A DNA stretch of 64,000 nt from a virus (lineage: Duplodnaviria > Caudoviricetes), in IMG/VR virus record IMGVR_UViG_3300032285_003957, positions 1 through 64,000 of that record; one strand, 5' to 3'. Under the pieces are notes generated by a model, which worked only from the letters and a program-made list of their open reading frames with translations, searched no databases and was not told the origin of the DNA. Made by a program: the position numbers and the translations under genes. Positions 1-8,363 of this stretch are shown in pieces (the first letter of the stretch is position 1; each line of letters starts with the position of its first letter).

Positions 1-41
1 AACTCATACAATCATTTTATGGAAATGAATAGAAATAATAT

Positions 42-49
42 TATATTTG
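42..49 (+). promoter_or_regulatory. Bacteroidota-type -7 promoter element TATATTTG upstream of the first cassette array
   Basis: Matches TAnnTTTG; no clear -33 TTTG. Confidence 0.45.
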
Positions 50-59
50 TTTATGAATT

Positions 60-68
60 TGTGGATAA
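60..68 (-). promoter_or_regulatory. DnaA box TTATCCACA
   Basis: Perfect 9-mer (TGTGGATAA on +), intergenic. Confidence 0.5.
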
Positions 69-84
69 CACAAACATAAGTAAT

Positions 85-177
85 ATGATAAATTACAACG
101 AAGATAATTTTGATGATATGCCAAAGGATAGACCACTAATATTCAGAGGAGTAATAAGAAACAATGAAACCATTTAA
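85..177 (+). CDS. 30-aa peptide ending VIRNNETI, overlapping the next start
   Basis: Manual translation MINYNEDNFDDMPKDRPLIFRGVIRNNETI*; same C-terminus as 164..514. Confidence 0.5.
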   Translation: MINYNEDNFDDMPKDRPLIFRGVIRNNETI

Positions 178-185
178 ATTTTTTA
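151..185 (+). repeat. 35-nt gene-junction repeat, copy 1 (GTAATAAGAAACAATGAAACCATTTAAATTTTTTA)
   Basis: Identical at 488-522; 32 nt identical at 815-846; degenerate near 1032-1066. Confidence 0.95.
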
Positions 186-514
186 CAGACAATAAAATCA
201 ATATTGAAGATGACTCACTCTATCATTTAGATGTATATGAGAATATGGCGTTGGGGTTAATAAGTTATTGTATGAGGGCGAGTAGATCACCAATTGAATG
301 GAAACATCATTTTAGAGAAGGGGTGAATAAATGTTTGGAAATTAAAGAAATTCTATTTCATAACAATTTTGAATCTCCACATGTTAAAATCGTATATAGT
401 ATTCATACAATAAACAATCCAGGTAATGCTGATATGACTAACACAAGAGAACATACATTTCATCTTGCTGAAGATGTTTACAATGAAGTAATAAGAAACA
501 ATGAAACCATTTAA
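164..514 (+). CDS. hypothetical protein, MKPFKFF leader
   Basis: ORF track; starts inside the junction repeat. Confidence 0.8.
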   Translation: MKPFKFFTDNKINIEDDSLYHLDVYENMALGLISYCMRASRSPIEWKHHFREGVNKCLEIKEILFHNNFESPHVKIVYSIHTINNPGNADMTNTREHTFHLAEDVYNEVIRNNETI

Positions 515-522
515 ATTTTTTA
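488..522 (+). repeat. 35-nt gene-junction repeat, copy 2
   Basis: Identical to 151-185. Confidence 0.95.
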
Positions 523-818
523 GCAATAATAACGATTACGTTCTTAGTTTTCCACTAATAAGAAGAAATCATGTGAGACCCATTGACGACCTTGTTTCAA
601 TGCAAGAAATGGCACAATCGGTTAGAATGAGATGGATTGATGTTAGCTTGTATAATTTACAATTAAGAATATACACACATCTACATGTGGGTGAGGTAAT
701 GAGAATTGTAAGAATAAGCATATTACCAGTTGTATTTGAACCGAACAATCAAGTTAACAGAGAAAGGTTGATAAGATTATTGGAAGCAAGATTTCACAGA
801 GCATATATACATTCATAA
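501..818 (+). CDS. hypothetical protein, MKPFKFF leader
   Basis: ORF track. Confidence 0.8.
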   Translation: MKPFKFFSNNNDYVLSFPLIRRNHVRPIDDLVSMQEMAQSVRMRWIDVSLYNLQLRIYTHLHVGEVMRIVRISILPVVFEPNNQVNRERLIRLLEARFHRAYIHS

Positions 819-846
819 GAAACAATGAAACCATTTAAATTTTTTA
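815..846 (+). repeat. gene-junction repeat, copy 3 (32 nt)
   Basis: Identical to the 3' 32 nt of copies 1 and 2. Confidence 0.9.
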
Positions 847-1058
847 ACGATAATCCCACAAGGGTTGAATGGAGATCAGCAAGTGGATTAAGACAACCGC
901 TCACATCCATTTCCTCTAATCATATCATGAACATAATGAATTGTTTATCTGGTATGGGTAACATGACAATACCTGACCCATATGAAGGAAGAACAAGGCG
1001 TGAATGGTTTACGATATTTCATAATGAATTGATAAGAAGAAGATATGTCAACTTTTAA
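825..1058 (+). CDS. hypothetical protein, MKPFKFF leader
   Basis: ORF track. Confidence 0.8.
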   Translation: MKPFKFFNDNPTRVEWRSASGLRQPLTSISSNHIMNIMNCLSGMGNMTIPDPYEGRTRREWFTIFHNELIRRRYVNF

Positions 1059-1368
1059 ATTTTTATCTGGTGCAAACACTACCGATTATACAATTCGGCT
1101 AAGAAGATATCATAAGCGTTTATTGAATAGATATTGTGAGGTGTTTAATTTAAACCCTGGCCAACCCAACTATCATGCGGGTTATTTAATATTCAATACA
1201 GTTAATCATTTCATCAATGAGGGACAATTAACTTCTTATGATGAGATTAGAAGATACTACGCCATAGCATATCGTCATTTATCTAATATGGATGATATTA
1301 TAGAGGATTTCGAACATAGCGCATTTATGTATCTTGTGAATTATCCTGAACAAACGGACAACATATAA
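1045..1368 (+). CDS. hypothetical protein, MSTFKFL leader variant
   Basis: ORF track; 14-nt overlap with the previous ORF, as for 164..514/501..818. Confidence 0.8.
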   Translation: MSTFKFLSGANTTDYTIRLRRYHKRLLNRYCEVFNLNPGQPNYHAGYLIFNTVNHFINEGQLTSYDEIRRYYAIAYRHLSNMDDIIEDFEHSAFMYLVNYPEQTDNI

Positions 1369-1386
1369 GCGAGGCGAAGCCGAGCG
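1367..1386 (+). repeat. AGCGA-hairpin-GAGCG element (GGC-GAA-GCC)
   Basis: AAGCGAGGCGAAGCCGAGCG. Confidence 0.8.
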
Positions 1387-1430
1387 GTAATAATTTGTTA
1401 ACATGGAGGTTTTGATATAAAAAACTATTT

Positions 1431-2123
1431 ATGAACATGAGGATACAGGCATTATTCATTTCGGACGTTCATCTTGGTTCCAAAGGCTCAAACGCTGAAC
1501 AAGTTCTACAAATTCTTAAGCATTACCAACCCGAATATCTATTCCTTGTGGGGGATATTGTGGATGGTTGGTTATTAAAGCGCAAATTCCGTTGGCCTCA
1601 GTCGCATACAAATGTATTAAGAAAGATATTATCTTATAGCAAGAACGGAACAAAGGTAATATACATACCAGGCAATCACGATGAGTTTATGCGTGATTAT
1701 GATGATTTTCATTTCGGGAATATTGAGATTCACAATGAGTATATTTGGAATAACACTTATATCACGCACGGAGATTTATACGATGGGGTCGTTAAATTGA
1801 AGTGGTTGGGGATTTTGGGTAGTGTTGGATACGATTTAGCCATCAGTATTGATCGCAGACTAAAATCTTGGGGATATAAGCGAAGTCTATCCAAATTCTT
1901 AAAGGATAAGGTAAAGGAAGCCGTTAAGTTTATAACATCATTTGAGGAGGAGATTGTTCGCCAGGGAATAAAACATAACTGCAGCACCGTTATTTGCGGT
2001 CACATTCATCATCCCGAGGACAAGTTAATTAACAATGTTAGATATTTAAATTCGGGGGATTGGATTGAAAATAACTCATATATCATATACGTAGATGGAG
2101 AATATACCGTTATTAAGGGATAA
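1431..2123 (+). CDS. PlcP/LpxH-like calcineurin-type metallophosphoesterase (UDP-2,3-diacylglucosamine diphosphatase-like)
   Basis: FISDVHLG, LVGDIVDGW, WPQSH, PGNHDEF, HGDLYD, CGHIH, NSGDWIE motifs. Confidence 0.85.
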   Translation: MNMRIQALFISDVHLGSKGSNAEQVLQILKHYQPEYLFLVGDIVDGWLLKRKFRWPQSHTNVLRKILSYSKNGTKVIYIPGNHDEFMRDYDDFHFGNIEIHNEYIWNNTYITHGDLYDGVVKLKWLGILGSVGYDLAISIDRRLKSWGYKRSLSKFLKDKVKEAVKFITSFEEEIVRQGIKHNCSTVICGHIHHPEDKLINNVRYLNSGDWIENNSYIIYVDGEYTVIKG

Positions 2124-2814
2124 TTTAACAATTGTCATTCCGTCGAAGAATGAGGGAATGAATTTATATCATTGTATAAGCAGCATTGCATCGCAGGTTA
2201 TGGGACAGGGGTTGAGGATTATTATTGCGGATTGCAGTGATGAGCGAAAGTCGTTTGATGTATTGGCGGAGATTAAGAGGGATTTTAAGTATTCGTTAAA
2301 TATTGAGATAATTGAGGGTGGATATCCCGCATATGGAAGAAAATCGGGGGCTGATTTGGTAAAGACGCCCTATGTTTTGTTTATGGATGCGGATATTATA
2401 TTATTGGATAGGAGGGTATTAGTGGATTGTTTGAATAAGACCTCGCATTTGACCACAGTTACCTTTTCGACCGATTACGGATACAATTGGATATATGGGG
2501 TTTTCACAAGCGCGCAGAGGGTAATGAAGTTTTTCGGGGATACATTTGCGATTGGTGGTTTTCAACTATTCAGAACGGAGATTTATAATTATACGGGCGG
2601 ATACAATCCAAATCATGTTTTTGCGGAGGATTATTATGTATCCAACAAGATTCATTCGCAGTTTTTTAATATACATAAGACCAAAGGGGTCTATACATCG
2701 GCCAGACGTTTTAAAAACAAGGGTTTATTCTATATGTTGGGCCTAATGATAAAATGTTGGTTCAATAGAAGAAACGAGTCATTTTACATAAAATCGCATA
2801 ACTACTGGAATTAA
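2095..2814 (+). CDS. glycosyltransferase family 2
   Basis: IVIPSKNE, IIIADCS, FMDAD (DxD), EDY, TSARRF. Confidence 0.85.
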   Translation: MENIPLLRDNLTIVIPSKNEGMNLYHCISSIASQVMGQGLRIIIADCSDERKSFDVLAEIKRDFKYSLNIEIIEGGYPAYGRKSGADLVKTPYVLFMDADIILLDRRVLVDCLNKTSHLTTVTFSTDYGYNWIYGVFTSAQRVMKFFGDTFAIGGFQLFRTEIYNYTGGYNPNHVFAEDYYVSNKIHSQFFNIHKTKGVYTSARRFKNKGLFYMLGLMIKCWFNRRNESFYIKSHNYWN

Positions 2815-2815
2815 T

Positions 2816-2911
2816 ATGGGAACAATATTTCCGTGGCTTTTATCATTTACAATGGTGATAGGATTAACTATTATTGTAATGATTGTTGACCACATCACAA
2901 AAAAAAGATAA
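2816..2911 (+). CDS. 31-aa single-TM peptide
   Basis: Manual translation MGTIFPWLLSFTMVIGLTIIVMIVDHITKKR*; fills the gap between genes. Confidence 0.5.
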   Translation: MGTIFPWLLSFTMVIGLTIIVMIVDHITKKR

Positions 2912-3211
2912 ATGTATAAAGAACTTATTGTATTAATATCGCAGACCTTGTATAATATATTCAAGGTATTGGAGATAAAGTATACCTATCAAAACAAGGT
3001 GGGTGCTTTATTATTAAACTCTGTATGGATAAATTTGGTTGCATTGGCTTCCACCTATTATGCCATTGATGATTTATTGAAGGGGAATTTCACCATTATT
3101 ATATTCTATATAACGGGTTCGGTTGTTGGGAAATATGTTGGAATGCAGTTTGGAAACCCAAGAAATCAGGTGTGGAGGAAACTATTTAAACAAAAAAAAT
3201 CACATGAATAA
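2912..3211 (+). CDS. small multi-pass membrane protein
   Basis: Hydrophobic helices, GSVVGKYVGM. Confidence 0.7.
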   Translation: MYKELIVLISQTLYNIFKVLEIKYTYQNKVGALLLNSVWINLVALASTYYAIDDLLKGNFTIIIFYITGSVVGKYVGMQFGNPRNQVWRKLFKQKKSHE

Positions 3212-3363
3212 ATTAATCGGGGAGATTATAACGGTATCAGCTATATGCGTATTATATTATTGGGCGGTTAAATCTTTTATGAAGATGCTTTCAAAAAAAG
3301 GATTATAGCTCATAATTTGGAATTATCGAAAATATTATCTATATTTTTATAAAACACCACAAT

Positions 3364-3552
3364 ATGTCACATTTTATTTATTTTGACGAGCCCGATGATT
3401 ATGAACCAGAGGATGATTCCAATGAAAATTCGGGAATGAGCAGCATGTATAAACAAATGTTAAGGGATGGAATTCCCACGGATGATATGGGTAGAATCTA
3501 TCTAAGCGATGGGATGGTATTATGTCCCGACGGCACGGTTAAGGAGCAATAA
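3364..3552 (+). CDS. small acidic hypothetical protein
   Basis: ORF track; TTTG and TATATTTT upstream. Confidence 0.65.
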   Translation: MSHFIYFDEPDDYEPEDDSNENSGMSSMYKQMLRDGIPTDDMGRIYLSDGMVLCPDGTVKEQ

Positions 3553-3573
3553 GTTGGTATTTAATGTAATGAA

Positions 3574-3834
3574 ATGAGCAAATTCCGATTTTTATCGTCA
3601 GTTCCCACCTATATGCACAGAATATCATTTGAAACCTGCAATCCCGAGATGAATTTCCAATATTTGGTTGAAACCTATGTGGAAGAGAGGGAAGATATCC
3701 AATTCACCTGCATGTTCTTGGGGAATATGTATGATACCGAATTTTCGGAGGATGTATTAAACTTAATTACCAATAATCTATTAGGTCACCCTGATATAGT
3801 AAGTGCTGAACTAATTGAAGTTGAATCGATATAA
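3574..3834 (+). CDS. hypothetical protein, MSKFRFL leader variant
   Basis: ORF track; N-terminus resembles the MKPFKFF family. Confidence 0.7.
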   Translation: MSKFRFLSSVPTYMHRISFETCNPEMNFQYLVETYVEEREDIQFTCMFLGNMYDTEFSEDVLNLITNNLLGHPDIVSAELIEVESI

Positions 3835-3837
3835 TAT

Positions 3838-4161
3838 ATGAAAAAGAAAAAACCCTTTGAGAAGATAATAAAGGAATGGAATGACGCTTCCCCTAAAGAA
3901 GTATGGGAAGGAGTTAGAGATAACTTTATATTCGGATTCTTGGGAGCCACCATTATTGTATTCATATCCACAAGAACGGATATAATGGTTCTTATGGTAT
4001 ATCTAACATATTATTTCTTTATGGGAAGAATTGTTAATCGTCCTAAGTATGTAACCGATTTGGGTAAGATGATTGTCTTTCCCATACCCTCAGCTTTGGG
4101 AGCTTTCACAGGATATAAATTGTCCTTTATTCTACAAGCACTTATAAACCATACAGTATAA
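3838..4161 (+). CDS. hypothetical membrane protein
   Basis: Two or three hydrophobic segments. Confidence 0.7.
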   Translation: MKKKKPFEKIIKEWNDASPKEVWEGVRDNFIFGFLGATIIVFISTRTDIMVLMVYLTYYFFMGRIVNRPKYVTDLGKMIVFPIPSALGAFTGYKLSFILQALINHTV

Positions 4162-4170
4162 TATATCGGT

Positions 4171-4990
4171 AAGCGAGGCGCTCCGACAGGAGTGGCGAGC
4201 CATACTATCTCCTGCTAATTCCCTGACTTCTACCTGACTATTCCCTGAAGCGAGACCCTCGACAGAGGGGCGAGCGTATAATATTCCCACCATACTACCC
4301 CATAAAATCACCCCTAAAAAAGTGCCGTTTTTGATACTAAAAACCCATATAAATTAGTCCTATTTTGCCAGCCATTCTGTCGTGATCTTTTTTTCCCACC
4401 GACATTGTGTCATATCTCGAAATTTTCGTCTTACATATATAATATCGCCATTTTGTGGAAAAAGTGGGGAAAAGTGGTAATCCGTGGGGATTGTCCCCTG
4501 TCCGAAGTAAAGAGCATATACAAAAAAAATTCCAGACTACCAAAAAAAGTTATCCACATTTTAAGTATTACGCTCGCCCCCTTGCGGTGGCTCGCTGCAT
4601 CCCGAGTAGCATGGCATATATAATTATATATTTTATAAGGCATATGTAATACGGCCCTAACCCCCTGAAGCGAGGCCGATAGGCCGAGCGTAATACTTGC
4701 TAACATTTTACTAACAATTGTAGTGCTCGCTCCACTGCGTTCCGCTCGCCCGCGGGGCCCGAATAAAGTTATCCACATTTTTATCACATACTTATCCCCA
4801 TGTAATACGGGATGAAGCGAGGCCGATAGGCCGAGCGCATAATTGTTAAAATTTTGTTGTTGTAGCAACGAATAGTTTTCTGGCAAGTATTACAGTCGCC
4901 GATGAGATATGGCGGATTATAAAAAACAAAGTTTGCTGGCAAGTAATACAAGCAAGTATGCTCGCTCGCCCTTTCGGTCGACCTCGCTGC
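4171..4990. repeat. cluster of seven AGCGA-hairpin-GAGCG elements (4171+, 4247+, 4571-, 4667+, 4725-, 4814+, 4960-)
   Basis: Conserved flanks around variable stems with GACA/GATA/GCAA/GAAA/GCA loops; 23-nt exact copies at 4667, 4814 and 17502. Confidence 0.85.
4454..4800. promoter_or_regulatory. DnaA-box cluster: 4550-4558 and 4769-4777 perfect; 4454-4462 TTTTCCACA on -; 4792-4800 one mismatch
   Basis: TTATCCACA / TTWTNCACA matches in non-coding DNA, with an AT-rich tract near 4613-4640. Confidence 0.65.
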
Positions 4991-5008
4991 GTGAAAATAA
5001 ATAATGTA

Positions 5009-5863
5009 TTACTTTACATGTGGGACTTCAGTCCAATACTCACTACCTACTTTAATGCCGTAGTTGTTCATGAACTTTGTGAATTCATAGAAGACCTGTT
5101 GTTCGAAATGGCTTCTGTCGCCGGGTTTTAATGCCAGTAAACTTTCACGGTCCTGATCTGTGATGGTAAAATGTAAATCTGTAATCTTTAACTTAAGCGT
5201 AGGAGTAATCTTATAGTTATGGGTTGCGTCCACAGTTGTAACCAACTCAGCATTATCTCCTACTTGGAAGTGGATAGTTACATTGGTCTCGGGTTGATTT
5301 TTCTCTAATGGAACAGTTAATTTACCCTTTCTAAGTTTTCTCATGTGGATGTTTGCGCGTGAGAACACGGCTTGTTGCATGTCGGCCGCATGGAAGAACT
5401 TCTTCAGCTGAGCTATTGCTTCAGGATGCAGCACGTAAATTTCATTGCTAATCTTGGAGGGGATGGATACAATTGGTGAGGATATCAGATACTGATGTCT
5501 TACATATGCGGCTAGAAGATTCAGATTTGGTTTCATAAGATCTACACCGTCGTATGACACGCCCTTTAATCCGCCGCTGAAGACAATATGTTGCACGCTG
5601 AATTTATCCGCTGCGGCATAATCATGCATCATTTCGTAATACGCGCTCATAGCATGCTGCAGCATGGACTCATGCACTTGGGGCTCCTTGATCAGGAGGA
5701 ACAATGCGAATTCTAATGGCGGCGGACCGTCAATTGGTTCTTTGGAGGTAGACTCTTGCACAACATAACTATGTAGTATTACACCGTTACCTTGGCCAAT
5801 CTCATGTCCCTTTAGCTCCTCATGGAGTTGTATAATAATGTCTCTTCTATCTTGCATTACCAT
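5009..5863 (-). CDS. hypothetical protein (GC-elevated orphan)
   Basis: ORF track 5009..5887, start moved to MVMQ; visibly higher GC than neighbours. Confidence 0.75.
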   Translation of the reverse strand: MVMQDRRDIIIQLHEELKGHEIGQGNGVILHSYVVQESTSKEPIDGPPPLEFALFLLIKEPQVHESMLQHAMSAYYEMMHDYAAADKFSVQHIVFSGGLKGVSYDGVDLMKPNLNLLAAYVRHQYLISSPIVSIPSKISNEIYVLHPEAIAQLKKFFHAADMQQAVFSRANIHMRKLRKGKLTVPLEKNQPETNVTIHFQVGDNAELVTTVDATHNYKITPTLKLKITDLHFTITDQDRESLLALKPGDRSHFEQQVFYEFTKFMNNYGIKVGSEYWTEVPHVK

Positions 5864-5929
5864 AAATATAATAAAAAAGGTCCCCATAAAATGGAAACCC
5901 TCTTTATTTTTTTTAGAATCCCGTATGTA

Positions 5930-6133
5930 TTACTTGGCAAGTAAAATGTTACGGTATGCAATCGCTTGACGCTTACTACTGAAGTTACGACTTACTTTAG
6001 TTCCGCCTACCACAGCTCTTACGCGATAAGATGTCCCATCGTGGTAAATGTTGTTTGAAACGCGGTTGTAAGTTGTTAGTGTTGTTGTCTTGCGGGTTGC
6101 AGTTTTTTTCATTCTGTTGGTTGTTGTTTTCAT
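5930..6133 (-). CDS. small basic AP2/integrase-type DNA-binding-domain-like protein
   Basis: NIYHDGTSYRVRAVVGGTKVSRNFSSKRQAIAYRN: three beta strands plus helix. Confidence 0.55.
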   Translation of the reverse strand: MKTTTNRMKKTATRKTTTLTTYNRVSNNIYHDGTSYRVRAVVGGTKVSRNFSSKRQAIAYRNILLAK

Positions 6134-6250
6134 GACATTTATTGTTTATAATAAAATATACACAAAAATGCCCGTAAAAAAAAATCAACAGCCAACTTTT
6201 TTCAATAAAGAGTTTTTGCCAGGAAACTATCGCATCCTGATCATCGCTGA

Positions 6251-6391
6251 TCATGCAGGTGGAATATACCAGTGTTCTCCATACTTGCTTTGCATGTAAT
6301 GGATATAACGACGGTGCTTCATTCCATTGTATAGGAATATGGTTAGATGGTAATCCACCCACCACTGCAATCTTTTGATTTGCTTTTTCAT
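6251..6391 (-). CDS. 46-aa hypothetical protein
   Basis: Manual translation MKKQIKRLQWWVDYHLTIFLYNGMKHRRYIHYMQSKYGEHWYIPPA*. Confidence 0.55.
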   Translation of the reverse strand: MKKQIKRLQWWVDYHLTIFLYNGMKHRRYIHYMQSKYGEHWYIPPA

Positions 6392-6451
6392 AATTGTGTT
6401 GGTTTAAGTATTTTTTGCCAGGAAACTATTGGGATGGTGATCAGGATCAGA

Positions 6452-6646
6452 TCAGATTTCCGTATGATAAGTTATCTCCTCATCAACTCTCTCCAAGTTG
6501 AATAGGTCTACTATCTCATTCAAAGCTTCGATTTTAGCTTTGGCAGCGGTTTCTAAAATTAATCCCATAGCCATCATGTGCTCATAGTGATTAATCTTGG
6601 ACATAATGTAGAGCTTCAGCGCAGCCCCGTTAATTGTGTTTGACAT
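6452..6646 (-). CDS. hypothetical protein
   Basis: ORF track; start moved to MSNT. Confidence 0.65.
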   Translation of the reverse strand: MSNTINGAALKLYIMSKINHYEHMMAMGLILETAAKAKIEALNEIVDLFNLERVDEEITYHTEI

Positions 6647-6657
6647 ATGTGTGTGTT

Positions 6658-6861
6658 TTATTTTTGCAAATCCCTCCACAAGCGGTAGTGGCCAGTAACT
6701 ATGGTCGTCTCCCTCAACGCATCTTTTTGAGATTTGATTCCCTCCTTATACAGGCGGAAAACCTTACCTCCATCAATTGAACACCATAATTCATAGGTGC
6801 CGTTGTCCGACGAGAACCGAATCTCGGTCTTAATCGGTGGTTTACTTTTCGTCTTTAACAT
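6658..6861 (-). CDS. hypothetical protein
   Basis: ORF track. Confidence 0.65.
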   Translation of the reverse strand: MLKTKSKPPIKTEIRFSSDNGTYELWCSIDGGKVFRLYKEGIKSQKDALRETTIVTGHYRLWRDLQK

Positions 6862-6887
6862 ATTATTGTTTTTTATAGTGTAACAAA

Positions 6888-7211
6888 CTAAGTCGTTAAA
6901 AGTTTATAATGACCATCAGTAATTAAATCCAACAGGTGTGCAGCCTCAAGCGCTTCCAACTGGTAGATGTTCTCTTCCCACTCATCTCCATTGTAATCCT
7001 TTCCAAGTAGAGTCATCCCGTTCTCGAGTTGCTCCACAATGAATCGCTCTTTCACATACTCGTGGTTGTAAACCTCCACTTCTTGGAAAACAATAAATGG
7101 ATTATTGAATTCAATAACAATACCATCTTCTTTGTGCTGCTCAAATGTATTTTCCACTTGATTGAGAAGTTTAATCCTAAGCTCCTCGACCTGCTGCTTA
7201 TATGTTTGCAT
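6888..7211 (-). CDS. hypothetical protein
   Basis: ORF track; start moved to MQTY. Confidence 0.7.
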   Translation of the reverse strand: MQTYKQQVEELRIKLLNQVENTFEQHKEDGIVIEFNNPFIVFQEVEVYNHEYVKERFIVEQLENGMTLLGKDYNGDEWEENIYQLEALEAAHLLDLITDGHYKLLTT

Positions 7212-7815
7212 TGTATTCTTTTTCGTTTTGACAAGACTCACAGATTTCATCACCCATATCCATTTCGGCTCCGCACTCGGGGCATTCGTCGTATTCTTCT
7301 TCTTCCAATAAGAAGTCAATTTTCATTGCCACAATATAACCACTTCTATCTCTCACAATGAATAAAGGGTAACCACCATCTCCAATACCTGACGAAGATA
7401 CAACACCATTGTCATACACTCCCCAAGAATCTTTGCTTAAGGTCATCTCACACATCTTCTCATACCATCTATCACCTTCTTCTTCTCTGTGAGGTAAAGT
7501 AAACGGAGGTTCTTCAGTTTGGATACCACTTGCTATTGCATCATTTCTGTAGCTGTCATACGAGAAGATACCAGCTTGACCTGAATCAACTCCTACTTGA
7601 CCTGGTGCTTCTTCCCAATCTAAAGCGCCGCTGTAATCGCTGTGTATTACCTGCAGTGAGTGAACGCGTTCGCCCCACCCGCTACAATCTCTTTTGTCTG
7701 CCTCGACATTGTATGTGCCGGGTAATACATTCTTTAATTTGACTTGGCACCAAGTAGGCTCAGTGTAACAAGGGTCGGATACCATAACTGTGTCTGTAAG
7801 TTGAATCTGTTTCAT
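7198..7815 (-). CDS. DUF4241-like protein with C-terminal zinc ribbon
   Basis: VSDPCY, GVDSGQAGIF, SGIGDGGYP; CPEC..CESC. Confidence 0.6.
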   Translation of the reverse strand: MKQIQLTDTVMVSDPCYTEPTWCQVKLKNVLPGTYNVEADKRDCSGWGERVHSLQVIHSDYSGALDWEEAPGQVGVDSGQAGIFSYDSYRNDAIASGIQTEEPPFTLPHREEEGDRWYEKMCEMTLSKDSWGVYDNGVVSSSGIGDGGYPLFIVRDRSGYIVAMKIDFLLEEEEYDECPECGAEMDMGDEICESCQNEKEYNANI

Positions 7816-7841
7816 TGTGTTTGAATTTTGGATTAAAATTA

Positions 7842-8363
7842 TTAAATGTTTTTGGTTCTACCAAATTTTTCTTTTAAAAGTTGTGTGACCTCTCTGCGTG
7901 TATTACTTATGGACTCCATCATTTTATCTTCCAAGCGAATTCGTCCCATACGAATAAGTTCGTCGCTCTCATAGAATTTTTCGATGTCAGTCCCAAGGTC
8001 TTCTACTTTACCAATAATATCCGAGATATCATTGCGGCTCATACCGTGTCTATAGAATAACGCGTAAGCATATACATACTCGTTACCTCGACCGCCGATA
8101 CGGAATTTAACATTGCTGTTAAGCTTAACATCTTCAAGTTGTCTTAACTGCATAATTATTTCTTCAAGCTTACACAACAATTGAATGTCGGACTTGTGCT
8201 CGTTGATTAAAGTTTTGTAGTGGTCCATAAAGATGTGAAGATCTTCCACACCATCATTTTTATAACGCTCACAATTTTTAATAAATGATTCGTATGCATC
8301 TTTCATTTTGTGAGAGCCGACGATTTTTGTGAACACGCCGTCGTTCTTTTGATATTTTACCAT
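7842..8363 (-). CDS. hypothetical protein
   Basis: ORF track. Confidence 0.75.
   Translation of the reverse strand: MVKYQKNDGVFTKIVGSHKMKDAYESFIKNCERYKNDGVEDLHIFMDHYKTLINEHKSDIQLLCKLEEIIMQLRQLEDVKLNSNVKFRIGGRGNEYVYAYALFYRHGMSRNDISDIIGKVEDLGTDIEKFYESDELIRMGRIRLEDKMMESISNTRREVTQLLKEKFGRTKNI

Follow-up and report, generated by a model that had tools for sequence, protein, structure and literature searches.

The internal proteins of phage T4 (IPI, IPII and IPIII) form a highly diverse defence set whose members share just a capsid-targeting sequence (CTS), itself conserved, for encapsidation into the scaffolding core (PMC3012670). The T4 CTS has the sequence MKTYQEFIAE (PMC8442874), and targeting depends mainly on its residues 4 and 7 (PMC9026906). 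In the PeSL (promoter-early stem-loop) cassettes of T4-type hyperplastic regions, small non-essential genes are flanked by short repeats, at which related T4-like phages recombine so that such genes are inserted, deleted or replaced (Arbiol et al., 2010, PMC2839356; PMC4122927). In polymorphic toxins and other systems with a constant head and a variable payload, the trafficking part at the N-terminus stays the same and recombination via shared sequence joins it to diverse payloads (Zhang, Aravind et al., 2012, PMC3482391). Here, we describe a locus at the start of a 64,000-nucleotide (nt) stretch of viral DNA (the window; positions 1 to 64,000 of IMG/VR record IMGVR_UViG_3300032285_003957, Duplodnaviria; Caudoviricetes), in which small tandem genes with dissimilar bodies begin with nearly the same codons, those for a peptide built around F-K-F-[F/L] (the FKF tag). 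Our interpretation, to which we assign a probability of about 0.6, is that the locus belongs to a hypervariable cassette array, in which a common docking or address peptide heads dozens of mostly unrelated accessory proteins and mediates the swapping of their genes. We found no paper describing the FKF tag or such arrays, and what is new here is a map of breakpoints with the tag as the recombination joint.

As in the T4 internal proteins, a short N-terminal peptide stands on otherwise unrelated, rapidly turned-over small proteins of a T4-like phage, and the aromatic residue at positions 4 and 7 of most FKF tags, as well as the initial M-K, coincides with the T4 CTS. However, the T4 internal protein genes are few and scattered, whereas the present arrays comprise 10 to 18 tandem overlapping genes. 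As in PeSL cassettes, a short repeat here marks the points at which related T4-like phages gain, lose or replace genes; PeSL repeats are non-coding units between genes, made up of a sigma-70-like early promoter and a terminator stem-loop, whereas the FKF repeat is coding, is kept by selection on the peptide, lacks a promoter or stem-loop and connects genes that overlap by 1-17 nt. Polymorphic toxins have heads of large domains, C-terminal toxins and immunity genes, whereas the FKF head comprises 4-8 residues and no toxin/immunity pairs were seen. The cargo-loading peptides of encapsulins are likewise short terminal peptides on unrelated cargo, and bind the inside of an HK97-fold shell; they differ in being usually C-terminal and in having another sequence than the FKF tag. 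With respect to integron cassettes, the FKF junction is coding and exchange at it looks homologous rather than site-specific; a repeat search detected no imperfect inverted repeats at the junctions, and no search aimed at an integrase was made.

In the window, a sequence of 32 nt, ATAAGAAACAATGAAACCATTTAAATTTTTTA, occurs exactly three times (154-185, 491-522 and 815-846; 0 matches expected from 100 shuffles), the identity being extended to 35 nt in the copies at 151 and 488, and a degenerate fourth copy, 75% identical, is located at 1033-1064. Every copy carries the stop of the upstream gene and the start of the next one. At junctions 1, 2 and 4, the upstream gene ends at the TAA within the TTT-AAA of the following gene, which is read in another frame over an overlap of 14 nt, and the ...NETI* ending of the upstream gene is the out-of-frame reading of MKPFK; at the junction at 815, the upstream TAA lies 5′ of the ATG and in its frame. 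The repeats and the dual reading VIRNNETI*/MKPFKFF at 151 and 488 agree with a first-pass annotation made from the letters of this stretch, as does its statement that the protein bodies are unrelated, given that the bodies of the window genes, trimmed of their termini, reach pairwise local-alignment z-scores of at most 2.7. The further relative beginning MSKFRFL that it placed at 3574 is also genuine.

The family was gathered by a 24-mer scan of viral contigs and then with an anchor, the metallophosphatase gene adjoining the array (window 1431-2123). The scan led to a contig of 335,630 bp, in which at least 18 genes stand in tandem, all starting M-x(0-3)-F-K-F-[F/L], and the anchor yielded 80 related loci. 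In closer relatives, 1-18 tagged genes lie upstream of the phosphatase; in more distant relatives, and in a few of the close ones, the site is occupied by ordinary untagged genes. In total, 175 tagged open reading frames (ORFs), all starting M-x(0-4)-F-K-F-[F/L], were collected from about 24 related loci, and these make up about 33-40 body families (102 clusters when grouped at 80% identity), the largest arrays being those of loci L036 (18 genes), L124 (15), L099 (12) and L108 (11). The tag is concentrated in the arrays: in the complete 335,630-bp relative (G001), all eight matches to a DNA pattern for M-x-x-FKF[F/L] fall within the array (control matches, 0), an array-less 310-kb relative (G002) has none, and the rest of the 234-kb record holds no further credible tagged ORFs, shuffled genomes giving 0-3 weak matches.

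The 234,116-bp record to which the window belongs, as its first 64 kb, is estimated to be 70% complete, and the array is cut at the start of the contig. A profile search of the phage genome detected a T4-type prohead protease (PF03420, 81.5 bits) and a T4-type major capsid protein (PF07068, 210.6 bits); the capsid protein is at most 40% identical to those of cultured phages, the nearest being Flavobacterium phage immuto, Rhodothermus RM378 and a Microcystis phage. The phage is a T4-like jumbo phage, and the array occurs in one clade of such phages. A Bacteroidota host is suggested by the G+C content of 33% together with the lack of Shine-Dalgarno sites. A megablast search of the locus against phage records and a tblastn search with one tagged protein gave no match.

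Among 99 representatives, the consensus of the tag is M-(I)-[K/R]-[P/E/D]-F-K-F-[F/L]-[Q/R/K/S/N]-[G/K]. Since the pattern used to collect the tagged ORFs demands the motif, the residue counts describe only the choice among pattern-allowed residues; within that choice, the core has F in 99/99, K in 97/99 (R in the others), F in 93/99 (L in the others) and F or L only at its last position. In the tag codons, TTT and TTC make up 78% and 22%, and AAA and AAG 78% and 22%, compared with 73/27 and 63/37 in the bodies, and leucine at core position 4 is encoded by TTA, CTT, CTA or CTC. On the 5′ side of the ATG there is just an A-richness at -14..-10 that is common to all genes of the genome. Because the codons vary as they do in the bodies while the residues stay fixed, selection on the tag acts at the level of the peptide and not on a nucleotide element. 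A profile of the body of o4, the fourth complete tagged gene of the window, was searched against 1.84 billion representatives; of the 33 genuine homologues that it detected, many of them below 30% identity in the body, 29 start with the tag, and the remaining four are without the N-terminal region. (A match to a 1938-amino acid (aa) ankyrin-repeat protein in this search was spurious, arising from summed weak repeat matches.) The tag is kept by selection on the protein and persists below 30% body identity.

The exact identity of the three window junctions is of recent and local origin. The orthologue of o1, the first complete tagged gene, ends ...EVMQRYENI in locus L124, where the bases of the junction differ from those of the window. 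Because this orthologous junction and the other junctions of the family differ, the window 35-mer is the result of local homogenization, by crossovers or gene conversion between neighbours, rather than a family-wide DNA element. The first-pass annotation had regarded the identity across wobble and non-coding positions as the mark of a conserved DNA module; this part of its proposal has to be abandoned, as other junctions use synonymous codons and different upstream bases. Nor does the upstream, dual-coding part of the junction appear to have a separate function, since it follows from tight packing and the stops borne by the tag.

The order of the body families, designated by numbers, differs between phages (for example 1-8-0-2-3-4-6, 2-0-5-9-3-12-4-10 and 5-9-3-4-10-7-1, and 10-18-19-6-7 in the window). 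The gene behind body family 10, which ends ...GVIRNNETI, always starts with ATGAAACCATTTAA (MKPFKF), and four bodies occur in this position (families 1, 7 and 14, and o1); where orthologues of these bodies follow other genes, their starts are MIKDFKFL, MIRQFKFL, MKEFKFL and the like. The head thus follows the upstream gene while the body changes, which places the crossover within the codons for FKF. Of the pairs sharing an upstream gene but differing in body, 43% have identical residues ahead of FKF, compared with 15% of those with a shared body behind different upstream genes and 4% of unrelated pairs; these percentages are descriptive because the pairs are not phylogenetically independent. 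We also observed pairs of cassettes fused in frame, and N-terminal segments that are mosaic. On this comparison of sequences, the DNA of the tag is the recombination joint for cassette exchange. A search of the genome and related phages for the tag and a comparison of gene order had been recommended by the first-pass annotation, which suspected that genes are shuffled at the junction; the 175 tagged ORFs, with an order that is not fixed and breakpoints inside the tag codons, support the suspicion.

The geometry of the junctions is also characteristic. An overlap of 1-17 nt is found at 72% of the 148 distinct junctions (14 nt in 32 cases, 4 nt in 29 and 1 nt in 20), compared with just 21% of the other same-strand neighbours of this genome. 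Within the DNA of the tag, one of the two other frames meets a TGA (in ATGA) and the second a TAA (in TTTAAA or ATGATAA), so that an upstream cassette of any frame ends within 17 nt of the next start. This geometry fits coupling by termination and reinitiation, which may operate here. A ribosome-binding site of the Shine-Dalgarno type in the junction was rejected, because such motifs are rare and the A-rich region at -14..-10 matches that of other genes. The frameshift-like strings TTTAAAT and TTTTTTA were also set aside, as by our reading of the sequence they are in the wrong phase and conservation is at the peptide level.

The bodies carried by the tag are diverse. Profile-profile comparison of 33 body clusters gave only three of 528 pairs above 70% probability (4-27, 3-11 and 3-25), and Pfam and PHROG scans of the window proteins and the 99 family representatives gave nothing over the cut-offs. 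AlphaFold2 models of two window proteins have different folds, a helical bundle for o4 (mean predicted local distance difference test score, pLDDT, 72.1) and a β-hairpin with two helices for o3 (mean 72.7). In both, the body scores 70-88 and residues 1-10 are without regular structure (mean pLDDT 46 in o4 and 43 in o3), so that the tag is predicted to be a free N-terminal tail on two different folds. Foldseek searches of the PDB with both models gave no match at E ≤ 0.001, and an ESM Atlas look-up of o1 gave no usable match. The earlier proposal that the seven-residue tag is a shared localisation or docking signal fits with peptide-level selection, deep conservation and the predicted free tail, and docking is its putative function.

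Two kinds of tagged body show weak but repeatedly seen likenesses to known proteins. One family has the pattern G-[YW]-x-A...G...N-P-[YF]...W..G-W, as in ribosome modulation factor (RMF); its best E-value to PF04957 is 2.3e-4 (three members), the one listed member, with 15.4 bits, stays below the cut-off of 27.9, the top match of a PDB profile search is RMF (2jrm_A, E 0.32), and JGI names several homologues RMF. These matches point to a resemblance to RMF, not to membership of its family. This tagged family of 75-80 aa is widespread (L036:7040-7270, L036:6485-6718 and L009:12885-13109, with 279 database homologues), and in longer forms the motif is duplicated or fused to another cassette body. 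The second kind comprises at least three tagged body types with about 30 residues like the N-arm of the capsid protein, with the pattern RR.AGRTIAQDLVPVQPLG; alignment with the phage's own capsid protein (IRRVFSKLLANDLVSVQAMNLPIG) by hhalign gave an E-value of 2.7e-4, and the T4 gp23 counterpart is VRRAIPNLIAFDICGVQPMNSPTG. Proteins of this kind are encoded at L036:5441-5911, L012:9056-9520, L131:2920-3405 and L133:13172-13444, and their N-arm-like segment corresponds to T4 gp23 around VMGMVRRAIPNLIAFDICGVQPMNSPTG. Such proteins might bind the capsid or act as decoys, and the segment may coincide with the stretch of gp23 known as Gol. A second kind of capsid-protein fragment gene was noted far from the array of G001 (G001:C1:302958-303128, locus L130, minus strand), a 98-aa ORF that shares 51% identity with the major capsid protein at residues 344-400.

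In the model that we favour, the window would hold the truncated end of a hypervariable array whose cassettes are small accessory genes, and an exposed peptide, M-(I)-[K/R]-[P/E/D]-F-K-F-[F/L] followed by a polar residue and [G/K], would head dozens of mostly unrelated bodies. The tag most likely brings differing payloads to one shared partner, for which the assembling phage head is a first guess. The tag codons (12-30 nt) would be the sole sequence common to all cassettes, and homologous recombination between them would swap, delete, insert or fuse cassettes with the downstream frame kept. The built-in stops would produce the tight overlaps that are typical of translational coupling in a genome without Shine-Dalgarno sites, and the 32-35-nt identity in the window would be a by-product of recent crossovers or gene conversion.

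Several points weigh against this model, in addition to the dependence among the pairs compared above. The core of the tag has just four residues, its docking role is deduced from conservation and exposure, and no partner for it was found. A low pLDDT at the N-terminus is common and makes weak evidence for a free tail. The tag was present on 25/25 sampled homologues of the RMF-like body, but the profile and the word index included the tag, which biased the sample to tagged proteins. Finally, untagged small genes are interspersed among the array genes, and the tag is therefore not required for residence in the locus. Two such genes recur, one of 59-60 aa (MKFRKTLTDKRLEELSDKVRRG...; L036:3414-3593, L010:8562-8741, L012:6293-6475 and L133:13754-13936) and one of 87 aa (MAKARKILSNTISELLKETSLE...; L036 and L010).

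As to the partner, the FKF tag may be a capsid-targeting sequence as in the T4 internal proteins, by which the tagged proteins are packed into the prohead core and injected as host-takeover or anti-defence factors, a tentative view that we place well short of an even chance. In its favour, both the prohead protease and the major capsid protein of the phage are of T4 type, and the diverse T4 internal proteins share just a targeting sequence of ~10 residues at the N-terminus (PMC3012670). The first Phe of the tag is residue 4 and a Phe or Leu is residue 7 in 62/99 tags, the tagged proteins resemble internal proteins in size (52-189 aa) and rapid turnover, and the N-arm-like segments of at least three body types also accord with a role in the head. 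However, the core FKF[F/L] is unlike MKTYQEFIAE, and no conserved (L/I)-x-E site of the kind that would end a T4-type tag follows it: the first such site is scattered from residue 12 to beyond 80 and is absent in 27/99, whereas the capsid protein itself keeps a LINE|A-type site. Neither are the proteins basic, with a median isoelectric point of 6.41 and 37% above 8, compared with 6.23 and 39% for other small ORFs. Tagged-ORF scans of the window genome and G001 found no head gene carrying the tag, and a motif that precedes ~40 genes including head genes, TATTTATA, is mostly missing from the arrays. Filing the FKF tag as a CTS was rejected on these grounds, since protease site, basic charge and late-gene motif all fail.

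The motif TATTTATA is the reverse complement of the T4 late promoter TATAAATA and is ~23-fold enriched within 60 nt upstream of starts in the phage record (G000), where it precedes 40 genes against 1.7 expected and usually starts 11-14 nt before the ATG. Its sites, which lie upstream of 22693, 90194, 92030, 95368, 136517 and others, include some before genes adjoining that of the prohead protease and before large genes in the tail and baseplate region of the record; a weaker motif, TATTTAAT, is found before some genes that lead an array. TATTTATA is either a translation signal or a late promoter whose mRNAs would be nearly leaderless.

Loading into the head is nevertheless the leading specific guess, beside docking on a host machine. 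In one form of it, which we regard as speculative and doubtful, the FKF tag would load a reshuffled library of dozens of unrelated effectors into the head for injection, among them the RMF-like protein and the N-arm mimics as possible decoys for capsid-sensing defences, with payloads swapped in frame and with a sequence that is independent of the T4 CTS and has no cleavage site.

Docking of the payloads on a host machine, such as the translation apparatus or inner membrane, a chaperone, a protease or a sliding clamp, seems improbable too and ranks behind head loading in general. The aromatic-basic pattern of the tag, h-x-h-h, resembles peptides that bind clamps or anchor proteins in membranes. 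One body family is RMF-like, as judged from the Pfam and PDB matches given above, and another body carries the capsid segment matching T4 region VMGMVRRAIPNLIAFDICGVQPMNSPTG, which lies in the same first quarter of gp23 as the T4 Gol peptide, a stretch of 29 residues that binds EF-Tu (PMC3014915). However, all of these domain matches are below curated cut-offs, and no clamp family of the gp45 type (PF09116, PF02916) was found in G000 or in the complete G001.

It is highly improbable that the junction is mainly a DNA or RNA element, for recombination or re-initiation, with the peptide as a by-product. Such an element would account for the identity of the three window junctions at wobble and upstream positions, and the stops in both other frames and the dominance of overlaps are in keeping with it, as coupling could matter where Shine-Dalgarno sites are lacking. 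However, across the family third codon positions drift at rates like those of the bodies while the amino acids are fixed, the exchanges K to R and F to L keep the chemistry by means of different bases, the region upstream of the ATG shows only the general A-richness of all genes, and conservation follows the 3-nt periodicity of the reading frame. Least probable of all is an ordinary family of fast-evolving tandem paralogues in which the N-terminal strand is the slowest-evolving structural piece, because, although the genes are tandem and similar in size and a few body clusters are related by profile, most body pairs lack profile similarity, the tag lies outside both of two differing predicted folds, some bodies resemble unrelated known segments (RMF and the capsid N-arm) and heads are exchanged between bodies.

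The tagged genes and junctions of the window are collected in Table 1. Full-length orthologues of the truncated first gene (121-122 aa, start MKPFKFFQNNIKRKW) are present in L004/L036, L013, L015 and L016.

Table 1. Tagged genes and junction copies at the array end in the window
Feature	Position	Strand	Remarks
Gene 0, 3′ part (58 codons), body family cluster 10	1..177	+	Ends ...FRGVIRNNETI*; truncated by contig end
o1, 116 aa, MKPFKFF...	164..514	+	Ends ...EVIRNNETI*; no Pfam/PHROG family; L124 orthologue starts MKAFKFFTENKINIEDD
o2, 105 aa, MKPFKFF...	501..818	+	Weakly similar to a tagged L124 gene
o3, 77 aa, MKPFKFF, body family cluster 6	825..1058	+	Orthologues at other array positions in relatives
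o4, 107 aa, MSTFKFL, body family cluster 7	1045..1368	+	Predicted all-α bundle
o5, 86 aa, MSKFRFL (Arg for Lys), isolated	3574..3834	+	TATTTAAT motif 16 nt upstream
Junction copy 1, 35 nt	151..185	+	14-nt overlap between the 3′ end of gene 0, with its stop, and the start of gene 1, with its tag codons
Junction copy 2, 35 nt, identical to copy 1	488..522	+	Orthologous L124 junction differs upstream of ATG
Junction copy 3, 32 nt identical	815..846	+	Upstream TAA 816-818, same frame as ATG
Junction 4, degenerate (75%)	1033..1064	+	14-nt overlap; tag MSTFKFL

Downstream of the variable array lies a conserved anchor present in 80 related contigs, in which the gene of a calcineurin-like metallophosphatase (1431-2123; start probably 1437, judging by relatives) and that of a family-2 glycosyltransferase (together 1431-2814) overlap by 29 nt. 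Between convergent gene blocks at 4162-5008, this AT-rich phage has a gene-free stretch of ~850 bp with G+C-rich repeats, including TGAAGCGAGGCCGATAGGCCGAGCG at 4666 and 4813 and the inverted pair AAGTATTACGCTCGCCC and GGCCGAGCGTAATACTT at 4563/4682; a similar sequence, GCGAGGCGAAGCCGAGCGG, directly follows the array (1369-1390). These repeats matched no Rfam family, and an Rfam scan of 1-8000 gave nothing relevant.

In huge phages, small genes without a known function number in the hundreds, and a short, readily recognised tag that marks one functional class of them gives a handle on dozens. The locus shows how a gene library may be kept evolvable, in that a tag conserved for its function would also supply the homology for in-frame exchange and the stops for any incoming frame. 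The N-arm-like and RMF-like tagged proteins are candidate anti-defence or host-takeover factors. If the tag is a head-loading or host-docking signal, it would be usable to address foreign proteins in Bacteroidota phages, and in the case of head loading the array would represent a natural plug-and-play delivery system in jumbo phages of the Bacteroidota type.

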